A stretch of DNA of 64,000 bases from Dictyostelium discoideum. Lineage: Eukaryota. The DNA lies in assembly GCA_000004695.1 (NCBI GenBank), contig CM000152.2, positions 704,001-768,000 of the forward strand, read 5' to 3'. The first letter of the stretch is position 1; every line of letters starts with the position of its first letter. Shown here piece by piece: positions 55,225 to 62,300 of the stretch. The position numbers and the translations under genes are program-made. The notes beneath the pieces were generated by a model that saw nothing but the letters and a program-made list of their open reading frames with translations, ran no database searches and was not told the DNA's origin.

Positions 55225-55460
55225 AAAGTAATAACAATACAAATAAAAATAATATTAAAACATAAACAGTCTTTGTATTTTGTAACATTAAACTCTTATA
55301 TCAATTGTTGTAGGGAATTTTATTATTTAATTTCACTACAGTAGCGCAGTGAAAAAAAAAATCACTGACCCTAAATTTTTTTTTATTCAAAAAACAAATA
55401 AAGTTTATTATTTTTTTGTTTTTAATTATTAATTCCTATTTTAATGGTTAATTATTATTA

Positions 55461-55513
<53 letters not shown>

Positions 55514-55849
55514 TCTCATTTTTTTCATTTTTGTTTTTCATTTTTTTTTTATTTTCATATTTTCAATTTTAGGACAACAAATTATCAAACAAACATTAAA
55601 GAAATCTAAAACTTCAGAATATTTATCATTTGAAAATAATTTAATTTAAAAGAAATGTGAAGAGTTTATATTATTTGTTATTAATGAATTACCAAAATTA
55701 AAATACTTAATTGGGTATTAATTTCAAAAGATGAAAGAACAAAAGCAGCAAAATTAGATAGTGAAGGTTTCTTTCAAAACAATTCTAAGTGTTACTCCAG
55801 TTGTTATCAATAATAAAAAATAAATAATAATAATAATGTGATATCATCA

Positions 55850-57520: not shown

Positions 57521-57602
57521 ACTAATAATATATTACCTATTTTAAAATTGAAAAAATGAAAATGAAAAAAAAAAAAAAAAAAAATTGAAAAAAAAAAAAT
57601 TG

Positions 57603-57636
<34 letters not shown>

Positions 57637-57842
57637 TACCAATAATAATTATAATAATAATAAATAAAATAATAATTAAAACAAAAAATAAAATTACAAT
57701 TTAATAAACTTTATTTGTTTTTTGAAAAAAAAAAAATTTAAGGTCAGTGATTTTTTTTTTTTCACTGCGCTACTGTAGTGAAATTAAATAATAAAATTCA
57801 CTACGCTGTAGTGAAATTTTATTGAAAATTCCCTACAACATC

Positions 57843-58730
57843 AATGTCACAATGTAATTGCTTTGTAAATGTTTTTACACTGCAGTAGTGATGCTGCAAA
57901 AAAAAGGGTAAGACCAAGCGATTATAAATATATCCCAGAACACTCTAGAAACGATATTGCAAATATTTTAGAAAGAGCTATAGCATCAGAAGAGGAAAAT
58001 CTCGAAAAAATCGAAAAAACAAAAGAAAGACTTTCACGCGCAAGGAAGGAAATTGAAGATCTTAACGCCAGAAATGAAAGTATTCAAGAATTAATTTCAG
58101 AAAATGACAAAAATTTAAAGAATACAAAAGAAGAAATTGAACGTTTAAAAAAAGAAAAAGATGAATTAAAAAAAGCAAAGGGAGAATTCGAAGCTTCTTT
58201 AAAAGAAATTGAAGTAAAAACAGCTTTCTTGGAGGATGTTAGTCAACATATCTTCAAAGAAGCACTCCGAGATCCAGCAGTGATGTGGGGTAAATTAACT
58301 TATGGAGGTGTGATCCCAACTAGCGAAGAAAACAGACAATTTTATTTAAATCTTGTCCAACATTTCGAAAAGAAAAATTATAGAATTTCCGAACTCAGAG
58401 AAGAATTGGAGTCTTTTCCAATTAATAAATTATTGGAAAAACTCCATATTGGTGATTCCAAAACAGAAGAAACAACCGATTGCATTGTCCCAGAGTCATC
58501 TGCTATAGTGCCACCACAACCAATAACTCCAACCACACCAATTATTACCGAGTTCGAAAAAGACAATTAATAAGTAACAAAATAAACTAACCACTTAGGG
58601 TTTTAAATTTTTTTTAGAGTGGTTTAAAATATCTCTTGTATTAATATTAATATCGTAAATGTAATTGCATTGTAAATGCAGTGTAAAATTTTACACTGTG
58701 TAGTGACGCTCAAAAAAAAAGTAAAAAAAG
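57843..58730. repeat. Pair of ~60-bp direct repeats (57847..57905 and 58655..58722) bracketing the coiled-coil ORF
   Basis: AATGTAATTGC(T/A)TTGTAAATG...TTTTACACTG(C/T)(A/G)TAGTGA(T/C)GCT.CAAAAAAAA(A)G occurs in both copies. The second copy has the perfect palindrome CAGTGTAAAATTTTACACTG. The CACTGCAGTAGTG core resembles the CACTACAGTAGCG sub-repeat of the neighbouring TIRs. Confidence 0.6.
57869..58570 (+). CDS. Coiled-coil ORF (233 aa) flanked by ~60-bp direct repeats, adjacent to the TIR element
   Basis: Intact ORF with E/K-rich heptad-like stretches (EENLEKIEKTKERLSRARKEIEDLNARNESIQELISENDKNLKNTKEEIERLKKEKDELKKAKGEFEASLKEIE). The first ~15 codons lie inside the upstream direct repeat, so the true start is uncertain. 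Confidence 0.35.
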   Translation: MFLHCSSDAAKKRVRPSDYKYIPEHSRNDIANILERAIASEEENLEKIEKTKERLSRARKEIEDLNARNESIQELISENDKNLKNTKEEIERLKKEKDELKKAKGEFEASLKEIEVKTAFLEDVSQHIFKEALRDPAVMWGKLTYGGVIPTSEENRQFYLNLVQHFEKKNYRISELREELESFPINKLLEKLHIGDSKTEETTDCIVPESSAIVPPQPITPTTPIITEFEKDN

Positions 58731-59274: not shown

Positions 59275-60058
59275 ATAATAACAATAGAATTGATTTGTGG
59301 TAATTCAACAAATTTTACAATAAAACCAATTATTCTTTTGGACCATAAATAGCTTAATTATAATATTTATTTAAATTAATATTTATTATATATATATATA
59401 TTTCAACTTTTGATTCTGGAAATACAACTTGGGCAATAAAAGAAATTAATAAAAATATGATATCCAGAAAAACAAGAAAATAAACAAAACCAAGTATTCA
59501 GTGAAAAGGATTTTATACAATTATTTAATTCCTGTAATAATATGAAGTTGTTTCTTGTGAATCTATTTCATTTTTTTTTTTTTTTTTTAAGTATTTATTT
59601 AAGTTTTCTACAAGATAAAATGGTGTCAATGTTCTGTCTTGAATGCTTCAAAAAAATAATAAAAAAAAAATAGGTTAGTTTATTTTTTGAATTTAATAAT
59701 TTATCATTCATTTTTTGTAATTGTTTTTGAAGAACAACCAGAGAGAATATATCTTTAATAAAAAAAAAAAAACCAAAAAAATTTGAATGTGAGTTTATTT
59801 TTTACAGCGGAAGACACAACAGATAATATGGAAAAATTAAAAAAAAAATTGAAAATTAGTCAATAGATATTAAAATTTTAAGGTGTGCCCAAGCAACTGG
59901 AGCTCTACTTGCGGTTAATCTATTATTATTTTTTATTTCTCCAACTTTTTTTGATGGGGGGTCATTTTGCCTCCAAAAATATTATTATTTTACTTTTAAT
60001 AAAAAAAAAAACATTTGAGACACAAAAGATATTTTATTTTTTTATTTTTTAATTTAAT

Positions 60059-60090
<32 letters not shown>

Positions 60091-60187
60091 TGGCATTATT
60101 TAATTAAATTAAATAGTTGAGTGATTTTTGAGTTGAATCCATTTTATTTTATAAAAAAACCAACAATATTTAACAAAGATTAAAAAC

Positions 60188-60600
60188 CAAACTTTTTTAA
60201 TGAAATGGATGAGAAGGAGAGTAAGAATTTTCAGAGACATTGGTTTTCTCAATGGATCAATAACCAAATATTGAAACTAGTTATTTATAGGTAATAAAAA
60301 TGTTTTAATAGATAGAATTATGATAAAATTGGAAGTTGACAATGGTGGAGGATGGAATTACAATTCATCAAATACCCAAATTTACATTGAGTGATGATAG
60401 CTTTATAAAATTAGAGATTTTTGAATTTGTTAAAAACAACGCCCAATCATTGATTTCACCCGACCTAAATTAATTCAATCGATGAGGATTTAGTTGCTTA
60501 TGATGGGAATTATGCTTCTATTATATATTTACCTTCAAAACCAAATAAAAAATTCAGTTTTGGAGAGTTGGATTTCCTAGAAAATCAATATCCATAGCTG
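60188..60600 (+). pseudogene. Decayed ORF fragments (MDEKESKNFQRHWFSQWINNQILKLVIY..., then frame-shifted pieces)
   Basis: ATG-initiated 29-codon ORF followed by coding-like stretches in the other two frames (HCPKFTLSDDSFIKLEIFEFVKNNAQSLISPDLN / NSIDEDLVAYDGNYASIIYLPSKPNKKFSFGELDFLENQYP). The N-terminal motif F-x-R-x-W-F-x-x-W-I-N-N-x-I-L resembles the N-terminus of the 45797..48376 product (FYREIWGNIYIRNNIISFL). Confidence 0.25.
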
Positions 60601-61368
60601 TAATACTTTAAGATGGATACTTACAAAAGAAAAAAAAAAAAAAAAAAAAAAAATTTAAGAATAAATGATTCTAAATTATTCAGTGTCATTACTTTAAAGT
60701 TAAATTTGGATAATTAAAATTTTTTTTTAAAAAAAACAAATAAAATAATCAAGCTTTAAATGAATTGTTTTTTTTTGATTTAAAAAAAAAAAAAAATAAA
60801 AAATAATAAAAAATAATAAAAAAAAAGTATACTATTTAATTTATTTGTACAAATATATTTTTTTTTATTTTATTTTTTTATTTTTTATTTTTTTTTCAAA
60901 AAAATAAATAAAATAAATAAATGAAAATAAAGACCTTTATAATTATTTAAATTCATTTTTTAATATTTTTTACCATTTTGTGGTTGTTTGGGGTTATAAT
61001 TAAAAAAAAAAAAAATAACTTATAAAATTTTTATTTTGTGGTTATTTTTAAAATTTTATTTATAAAAAAAAAAATAAATAAATTCTAAAAATAACCAAAA
61101 AATAAAAATTATAAAACTTAATTAAGTTAATAAATTCTAAAAATAACCACAAAATAAGAATTTAATAAATCAATTTTTTTTTTTTATTTATTAAAAAAAA
61201 AACAATCAAAAAAAAACCAATTTTTTTTTTTATTTATTTTTTCTATTTTTTTATAACACAACTTCACCAACATTCTTGGATGGTAAATAAAAAAAAAAAT
61301 ATAAATGGAATATTATAAAATTTTTAAAAAATAAATAACGAAGATAAAAAAAGTTTGTTTAATTGGTT

Positions 61369-61401
<33 letters not shown>

Positions 61402-61817
61402 TTTTTTTAGCCACCAACATTTTCGTTTATTATTACTACAAAATCCAAGTAATATAATTAATATGTAAATTATATTTTTAATTTTAGAAATTGCTGGTTT
61501 TTCATTTCCTCAAGAAAAAGGTAATTATTATTATTTTTTTTTTTATATTTATAAATTTATTTAAATATAAAAAAAATCACATTAATTTAACACATTTAAT
61601 TTTTTTTTAAATTTAAATTTAGTAATTAAGTTAACCATTGATAAAATTTCCAAGTGGTGACTCTTCATTAGTTGCAGTTGGTTCCTCACAACAAAATTAG
61701 TATCTTTTAGGTAGTATTCAAGTTTGATCATATATATATATGGATTATTCCAAGTAATATATACAATTAACAATATTGTTTAATGTAATTAACTTTTCAA
61801 CCTATATAATGATCGTT

Positions 61818-62025
61818 AGTACACTTTTGTGAAGAAATAATTTTTTTACATTGATGTTACCAATGCTAACAATTATTAATGTTTTGTATATTTGAGATGA
61901 TAATCACCAGTAATTAAACCATATTTAACTTTTGGTATCATCTCAAATAAACAATTCATTAAAAATTGTTAACATTCGAAAACATCAATGTAAAAATGTT
62001 ATTTCCTCTCAAAAGTGTTCTAGCC
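61818..62025. repeat. ~210-bp near-perfect palindrome (long hairpin / MITE-like)
   Basis: Left arm GTACACTTTTGTGAAGAAATAATTTTTTTACATTGATGTTACCAATGCTAACAATTATTAATGTTTTGTATATTTGAGATGATA pairs with right arm TATCATCTCAAATAAACAATTCATTAAAAATTGTTAACATTCGAAAACATCAATGTAAAAATGTTATTTCCTCTCAAAAGTGTTCTAG. The centre CACCAGTAATTAAACCATATTTAACTTTTGG sits at about 61920, and there are only ~10 mismatches across ~95-bp arms. Confidence 0.7.
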
Positions 62026-62300
62026 ATCCTTTTATAAGTTTAAAAGTTAATTATAAATAAATGGTATTGTAATTGATAATAAATTATTATTTTCATTTCT
62101 CATCAATTCTACCACCACCACCACAAGCAAACACAAGCACTGCTATCTGAAAATCAAATTGGAAAATTACCAACTTAAAAAAAAAAAAAAAAAAAAAATA
62201 AAAATAATAAGCTAAATAAAAAATATTTAAATTTTTAAAGATATAAAAAAAAAAAATGGAATATATCTGGATTTTTTTTTTTTAAATTTAATTTTTAATT

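Follow-up and report, generated by a model that had tools for sequence, protein, structure and literature searches.

Does the long imperfect palindrome found in a gene-poor interval of Dictyostelium discoideum DNA encode a hairpin RNA, or is it the remnant of a transposon, an element acting at the DNA level, a functionless trace of a past repair event or an artefact? We address this question in a 64-kb stretch of DNA, hereafter called the window. The answer that we favour, with a little less than even confidence, is that the palindrome is an old, locus-specific inverted duplication, which would constitute a small-RNA source of the long-hairpin, proto-miRNA type if the gap in which it lies is transcribed.

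Chromosomal setting and anatomy of the inverted repeat

Three complete ORFs in the window are 100% identical to the D. discoideum AX4 proteins DDB_G0278355, DDB_G0278359 and DDB_G0278363, which identifies the window as part of AX4 chromosome 3. The G+C profile, which ranges between 12 and 38% along the window, fits D. discoideum chromosome-3 DNA. We compared the region with a separately assembled D. discoideum chromosome of the same strain lineage as AX4, GCA_054883475.1 (locus L001). The two are 99.5% identical, and homopolymer lengths account for most of the differences. Locus L001 adds 6.7 kb beyond the window, for a total of 71 kb.

The palindrome (CM142509.1, ~848.9-849.3 kb, in the second assembly) is located inside a 3.7-kb gap with convergent genes on either side, namely those coding for DDB_G0278363 and for DNA polymerase epsilon subunit 2 (Table 1). 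The initial annotation had described the interval as gene-poor, and indeed zero genes are annotated between 58570 and 62301 in the sister assembly. The gap seems much longer than would be expected between convergent genes in the compact D. discoideum genome. The palindrome sits close to one of its ends, with its edge 214 nt away from, and downstream of, the stop codon of the DNA polymerase epsilon subunit 2 gene. We found no tRNA genes in the 64-kb window and no DUSE ncRNA promoter motif near the palindrome.

Self reverse-complement BLAST and global alignments of the arms delineated an imperfect inverted repeat of 332 bp, at 61755-62086. The extent proposed initially, 61818-62025, was therefore too short. 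The description of two arms surrounding a short spacer stands, as the inverted repeat is real and the spacer short, but the arms, thought to be ~95 bp long, are considerably longer (Table 1). The nested inner palindrome is exact and corresponds to the 14-bp pair TATTTGAGATGATA/TATCATCTCAAATA. The complementarity of the arms, described as near-perfect and ~90%, had been overstated: 124 of 148 aligned positions are identical over the full arms (84%), with 7 gap positions, and 74 of 86 aligned positions match, also with 7 gap positions, when only the shorter arms of the initial annotation (61818-61905 and 61935-62025) are considered.

Table 1. Positions in the window of the parts of the palindrome and of its neighbouring features.
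Feature	Position	Strand	Remarks
DDB_G0278363	57869-58570	+	Left neighbour of the gap; annotated in GCA_054883475.1
T30-A-T8-A-G, candidate Pol II start motif	61370-61410	+	Oligo(dT) ending in G; 345 nt upstream of the left edge
Left arm	61755-61905	.	151 nt; best-matched core from 61786 on; BLAST, arm alignments, RNA and DNA folds
Inner perfect 14-bp half-site TATTTGAGATGATA	61889-61902	.	Exact reverse complement of TATCATCTCAAATA
Spacer/terminal-loop region	61906-61934	.	29 nt, ACCAGTAATTAAACCATATTTAACTTTTG; sequence and dot-bracket folds
Right arm	61935-62086	.	152 nt; BLAST and global arm alignments
Partner half-site TATCATCTCAAATA	61936-61949	.	Exact reverse complement of TATTTGAGATGATA
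Variable sites	62025 and 62029	.	Both C in AX4, A in L001
T22-AAG-TTGG, candidate start	62171-62198	-	Oligo(dT) then G at 62174; 88 nt upstream of the right edge
DNA polymerase epsilon subunit 2 gene	Stop codon 62301-62303	-	Annotation of GCA_054883475.1; Pfam PF04042 by homology

The predicted folds show a stem of ~150 bp within a hairpin of ~330 nt, with a mismatch or bulge about every 6-7 bp. Runs of 9-16 perfect pairs alternate with single mismatches and small bulges, both in the folds and in the alignment. As modelled, this texture is that of miRNA or hpRNA precursors, unlike that of perfect dsRNA. The outer bases of the spacer are predicted to be paired as well (ACCAG with TTGGT, the latter starting with the last three bases of the spacer and continuing into the right arm), so that a small apical loop remains. 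At the other end of the stem, the edges of the palindrome are diffuse, as the symmetry fades gradually into A+T-rich DNA in the global alignment.

The sequence of the palindrome is of higher complexity than its surroundings, as was first reported. Its G+C content is 21%, vs 15% and 18% in the flanks, and its longest homopolymer is T7, vs T30 and A22 outside. The differences between the arms are dominated by A<->T changes. Potential G.U pairs arising from them number 7 for the + strand and 5 for the - strand, an absence of bias that gives no hint of selection on either RNA strand. These counts and the near-equal folding energies of the two strands (see below) favour neither strand for a putative RNA.

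Several other unusual features are found in the vicinity. A second inverted repeat, very A+T-rich, is present ~570 bp upstream of the main palindrome (61003-61185). Its 54-nt arms are 89% complementary and separated by a 75-nt spacer, it harbours an internal direct repeat, AAATTCTAAAAATAACCA(A/C)AAAATAA, and its folding energy is -39.8 kcal/mol for 201 nt (-0.20 per nt). At 58679-58698, ~110 nt downstream of the stop codon of DDB_G0278363, there is a perfect 20-bp palindrome, CAGTGTAAAATTTTACACTG, in a short G+C-richer island (58640-58710). Between 58571 and 61400, we identified several more complex islands that match no Rfam family and do not resemble the genes of the window, including 59880-59960 (GTGCCCAAGCAACTGGAGCTCTACTTGCGG) and 60180-60620, which contains broken ORF-like sequence. 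Farther upstream, the segments 55315-55576 and 57543-57804 form an inverted pair of ~262 bp, with 85% identity with gaps, ~2 kb apart. One copy falls within the span of an annotated 474-aa gene, the other immediately precedes DDB_G0278363, and both partly consist of simple repeats (ORFs FIYLFIYL...). DDB_G0278363 is a coiled-coil-like orphan of 233 residues, which retrieved only itself from 5.8 billion protein clusters and whose 90%-identity cluster has one member. By contrast, four other D. discoideum or cf. discoideum assemblies contribute members to the cluster of the DUF885 protein DDB_G0278355.

Predicted folds and differences between assemblies

The palindrome is far beyond chance for A+T-rich DNA. 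The score of the arm alignment is 84, vs -4 ± 5.7, with a maximum of 19, in 1000 shuffles. RNA folding, a check put forward in the initial annotation, yielded a very stable hairpin, with energies over 301 nt of -114.4 kcal/mol for the + strand and -116.6 kcal/mol for the - strand, vs approximately -40 to -44 ± 4.4 kcal/mol for shuffled sequences (z about -17 for either strand). This amounts to -0.36 kcal/mol/nt at 37 C for both strands. At 22 C, the 332 nt fold at -161.8 kcal/mol, or about -0.49 per nt. We also folded the 64 kb as 1275 overlapping sliding segments of 300 nt, which gave a mean of -41 kcal/mol (sd 12.5). The top two folds both correspond to the palindrome locus (-102 and -96 kcal/mol), and the next-best segments, at -78 kcal/mol, are G+C-rich coding exons.

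The initial annotation cautioned that the structure might be a simple cloning inversion, with arm mismatches due to sequencing artefacts. This concern can be set aside, since the independent assembly has the same 332-bp palindrome with two substitutions, while its homopolymer lengths differ from those of the window as expected for independent data. Chimeric clones can produce palindromes, and miscalled bases in one of the assemblies could underlie the two arm mismatches that distinguish them; nevertheless, we regard it as extremely improbable that cloning, sequencing or assembly made the palindrome.

Over 7 kb, the window and L001 differ by only four substitutions, two of which are within the right arm (variable sites in Table 1). 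Both positions are predicted to be unpaired in the AX4 fold. The L001 allele at 62029 would pair with 61810 on both strands, and that at 62025 would form a G.U pair with 61814 on the - strand only, making the L001 hairpin 4-6 kcal/mol more stable than that of AX4 according to the predictions. The two C>A differences could result from selection for pairing, from partial arm-to-arm conversion or from base-call errors, two sites being too few to tell.

A fold in the DNA itself might also matter. As single-stranded DNA, the palindrome is predicted to fold at -73 kcal/mol (z = -13), which is compatible with a cis element that would adopt a cruciform or a lagging-strand hairpin and serve in replication pausing or termination, as a recombination hotspot or as a barrier between convergent units. 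Its position between convergent genes would suit such a role, and the concentration of two of the four substitutions inside the palindrome might reflect a raised local mutation rate or conversion. However, mismatches and a spacer reduce both cruciform extrusion and palindrome-provoked breakage, and here the mismatches (16%), the 7 indel positions and the 29-nt spacer should do so greatly. In addition, the structure is intact in two assemblies. To our knowledge, no such palindromic element acting at the DNA level is known in Dictyostelium. Thus, the fragile or recombinogenic site evoked at first is possible in principle from the energy of the single-stranded fold, and the mismatches, the spacer and the intact state of the structure argue against it. 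Overall, we deem a function at the DNA level improbable.

Age and origin of the palindrome

To find orthologous loci, we searched with the proteins of the neighbouring genes. The exon of DNA polymerase epsilon subunit 2 and the diphthine-ammonia ligase fragment beyond it gave no dictyostelid relatives, exact look-ups of the spliced DNA polymerase epsilon subunit 2, the kinase and neighbouring proteins had no match in the collection, and look-ups at the ORF level yielded no contigs. The comparison loci were therefore L001 and a 'cf. discoideum' locus (L013, GCA_054859235.1) that lies 24 kb away, the latter serving for the calibration of divergence only. Over 22 kb of the window, the divergence between AX4 and L013 is 7.8% for aligned intergenic positions and 5.3% for those within gene spans. 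Between the two arms of the palindrome, 16% of aligned positions differ. Assuming that the arms started out identical and diverged by neutral drift, the duplication would be approximately twice as old as the split between AX4 and cf. discoideum. Judging from these sequence comparisons, the hairpin does not appear to be very young, unless its arms were already different at the time of insertion.

An arm divergence of about twice the intergenic value fits long unconstrained drift. The palindrome might then be an inert relic, i.e. an inverted duplication made once by template switching or fold-back repair that has drifted to its current state, is not usefully transcribed and has no function. The predominance of A<->T mismatches with no strand bias in wobble pairs is what neutral decay would produce in an A+T-rich genome. 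In line with this explanation, the palindrome is locally single copy, has no Rfam family and does not match the published miRNAs that we compared, and miRNAs in this group of organisms have been published to be under weak selection. Nevertheless, an inert sequence would hardly be expected to form the strongest fold in 64 kb, or to have kept its complexity and remained devoid of long homopolymers when these abound in the rest of the gap. Both differences between the assemblies improve pairing, and it is unlikely that a 150-bp stem located 214 nt downstream of an expressed gene in a compact genome would escape transcription and dicing entirely. All in all, we consider a relic to be nearly as likely as a hairpin-RNA source, that is, a serious contender, if a doubtful one.

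The possibility that the palindrome is a MITE, as was also suggested, or the remnant of a fold-back transposon would imply that its arms are the TIRs of a non-autonomous DNA transposon whose interior was lost. With its 332 bp, the lack of any coding signal and the potential to form a hairpin over its whole length, the palindrome fits the characteristics of Stowaway-like MITEs. There is a precedent in D. discoideum for miRNAs that arise from a repetitive element, thug-S, and whole miRNA 'modules' have been published to be gained or lost by insertion or deletion between D. discoideum and D. firmibasis. Besides, if the arms had never been identical, their 16% divergence would require no long history.

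However, we found no second copy or half-copy of the palindrome in the 64 kb of the window and the additional 6.7 kb of L001. An exhaustive scan of boundary pairs for target-site duplications gave only short A+T matches, of which the best candidate, TAATTA, is palindromic and part of the repeat itself. The ends are not sharp, given the gradual fading of the symmetry. The thug-S-derived small RNA sequences of Meier 2016 are absent from the window, and a metagenome scan for the two-arm pattern returned 11 loci, all of which are chance matches. The MITE suggestion thus found no positive support, and without a convincing target-site duplication the palindrome is not classed as a MITE. We consider a transposon origin rather unlikely, and less likely than either a hairpin-RNA source or an inert relic.

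A coding or gene-fragment origin of the arms was rejected. Six-frame translation of the palindrome revealed stops in five frames and one open stretch of 43 codons in the right arm, which is about the length that we estimate to be expected by chance in such A+T-rich DNA and which has no relative among 1.84 billion representative proteins. Furthermore, tblastn and tblastx analyses of the gap against the genes of the window detected no similarity.

Small-RNA potential and comparison with known systems

Judging from the predicted folds, encoding a hairpin appears to be the one evident capacity of the palindrome. The arms, with 84% matched positions and a 29-nt spacer, conform to the structural definition of hpRNAs, which have stems of at least ~100 bp and short loops. 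D. discoideum dices expressed long hairpin RNAs to siRNAs (PMC3661229). Approximately 30% of its 21-nt RNAs are of intergenic origin.

We therefore return to the reading that we favour, a single-locus, fairly old fold-back generated by inverted duplication in the gap between convergent genes, and propose how it might operate. RNA polymerase II would transcribe the gap, starting at a flanking oligo(dT)+G site; alternatively, transcripts might come from read-through of the DNA polymerase epsilon subunit 2 gene, which is on the - strand and ends 214 nt away. The transcript would then fold back on itself, and Dicer-like nucleases, with RbdB, would cut the hairpin to generate heterogeneous small RNAs of ~21 nt. 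Such a locus would be of the hairpin-RNA or 'proto-miRNA' type rather than a canonical miRNA gene, and it would probably lack a conserved target. When the 21-mers of the hairpin were searched against the 71 kb for targets, only low-complexity A+T matches and no complementary target were found. Transcription, dicing and any regulatory role of the palindrome are steps that we infer.

The oligo(dT)+G motif has been described at the start sites of pri-miRNAs and mRNAs of D. discoideum and was mapped at those of pri-mir-1176, -1177 and -7097 (PMC6161686). Candidate motifs are present on both flanks of the palindrome (Table 1), which weakly suggests that transcription from either side would be plausible. 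The motif is a general Pol II feature in D. discoideum, and a motif scan found 169 such sites in the 64-kb window.

On the + strand, the region upstream of the palindrome (61280-61630) contains splice-like signals, read by eye. These are an ATG directly followed by GTAAAT (61280-61288), ...TTTTTTTTAG|CC (61410) and a GTAATT...AAATTTAG unit (~61520-61623). Joining these units yields an ORF of merely 26 codons. If real, the signals would belong to a spliced non-coding transcript that enters the hairpin.

Is the palindrome, then, a miRNA gene? A folding energy below -0.2 kcal/mol/nt is used as the criterion for D. discoideum miRNA hairpins (PMC6161686), and the values obtained here, -0.36 at 37 C and about -0.49 at 22 C, are well within it. 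Confirmed miRNA hairpins of this organism range from -0.51 to -0.73 kcal/mol/nt, which places the palindrome at the weak end. Amoebozoan miRNA loci lie between genes, in DNA with a lower A+T content than the intergenic sequence around them (PMC11014262), as does the palindrome. Nevertheless, its 332 nt exceed by far the 83-133 nt of the seven bona fide D. discoideum pre-miRNAs; in the group, most precursors are 75-125 nt long, and plant-type criteria limit the hairpin to near 300 nt. Because of its size, the locus is not classed as a miRNA gene. Hairpins longer than 200 nt are known in the group as precursors of young miRNAs, such as dfi-mir-1190 (256 nt) and ppo-mir-1226 (293 nt) (PMC11014262).

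We compared the palindrome with published miRNAs from groups that had sequenced deeply: Liao 2018 contributed 12 loci in Table S1 and 14 pri-miRNA loci in Table S3, Meier 2016 four candidates, and Edelbroek 2024 (Table S4 and supplementary files) seven bona fide miRNAs. None of the mature miRNAs in these three sets maps to the palindrome within 3 mismatches. Likewise, none of their loci coincides with it, as they are on other chromosomes or at 3.66-3.74 Mb on chromosome 3. The supplements of Liao 2018 and Edelbroek 2024 contain none of the k-mers of the stem, nor does the searchable literature, and searches by gene identifier were likewise negative. No Rfam family reached its gathering score anywhere in the 64-kb window, and the sole sub-threshold match at the locus, MIR774 (21.9 bits vs a gathering score of 80, E = 0.93), was discarded as noise. 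The length filters of miRNA pipelines would reject a hairpin of more than 300 nt, which may explain why the palindrome is missing from the lists. The early proposal of a hairpin-RNA or miRNA-like precursor is hence borne out for the structure, the energy and the location in a less A+T-rich intergenic island, and it is weakened by a length three times that of a typical pre-miRNA and by the absence from the miRNA lists compared.

A stronger version of the hairpin-RNA reading regards the palindrome as a long-hairpin small-RNA gene that is lineage-restricted and unannotated, a proto-miRNA from an inverted duplication that is still being shaped. The pairing-restoring changes between strains, both of which act in the - strand RNA, would be the trace of selection, and the length of the precursor would be the reason why pipelines missed it. 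We think this unlikely, although it deserves consideration. Amoebozoan miRNA repertoires turn over very fast, and the origin of new hairpin genes is an open question (PMC11014262). If transcribed and diced, the palindrome would exemplify a stage midway from a raw inverted duplication to a refined miRNA gene, in a host that is amenable to genetics and for which Dicer, RbdB and Argonaute mutants exist. Expression would add another long-hairpin small-RNA locus to the known ones. If it is not expressed, it is a well-preserved old palindrome tolerated in a very A+T-rich genome, of little wider interest.

The miRNA genes of D. discoideum (ddi-mir-1176, -1177, -7097, -1183 and others; Hinas 2007, Liao 2018, Edelbroek 2024) represent the first comparison set. 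Like them, the palindrome is an imperfect hairpin of sufficient predicted stability, in an intergenic island that is less A+T-rich than its surroundings, and it has oligo(dT)+G motifs within a few hundred nt upstream. Unlike them, it is much longer, has a weaker energy per nt, is in none of the lists compared and is a candidate predicted from sequence. [quoted passage not shown] These two form near-perfect duplexes and yield abundant reads, whereas the palindrome, a candidate hairpin, has a stem with 16% mismatches and looks about twice as old as the split between AX4 and cf. discoideum.

Copies of thug-S, a repetitive DNA element, yield miRNAs in D. discoideum. Similar to MITEs and thug-S, the palindrome is small, non-coding and endowed with an inverted symmetry that generates a hairpin. 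It differs from them in that it lacks a target-site duplication and well-defined termini and that the 71 kb contain no further copy. A locus of D. discoideum with fragments of the Skipper retrotransposon could form a stem of ~320 bp, from which eight cloned small RNAs have been suggested to originate (PMC2175303, Hinas 2007). Its hairpin consists of retrotransposon fragments with a loop of ~900 nt, whereas the palindrome is locally non-repetitive and has a 29-nt spacer. Both are endogenous D. discoideum loci able to form long hairpins.

Long inverted repeats that are diced to small RNAs are also found in Drosophila, as hpRNAs or endo-siRNA loci. In plants, according to a model reportedly proposed by Allen et al. 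in 2004, proto-MIR genes arise by inverted duplication, with arms derived from the target gene. Unlike for plant proto-MIR genes, we found no parent gene for the arms of the palindrome in the window or among the proteins searched. In its architecture, the palindrome resembles both hpRNA loci and plant proto-MIR genes, as a long inverted repeat with a short spacer and a stem of at least 100 bp that would be suited to Dicer.
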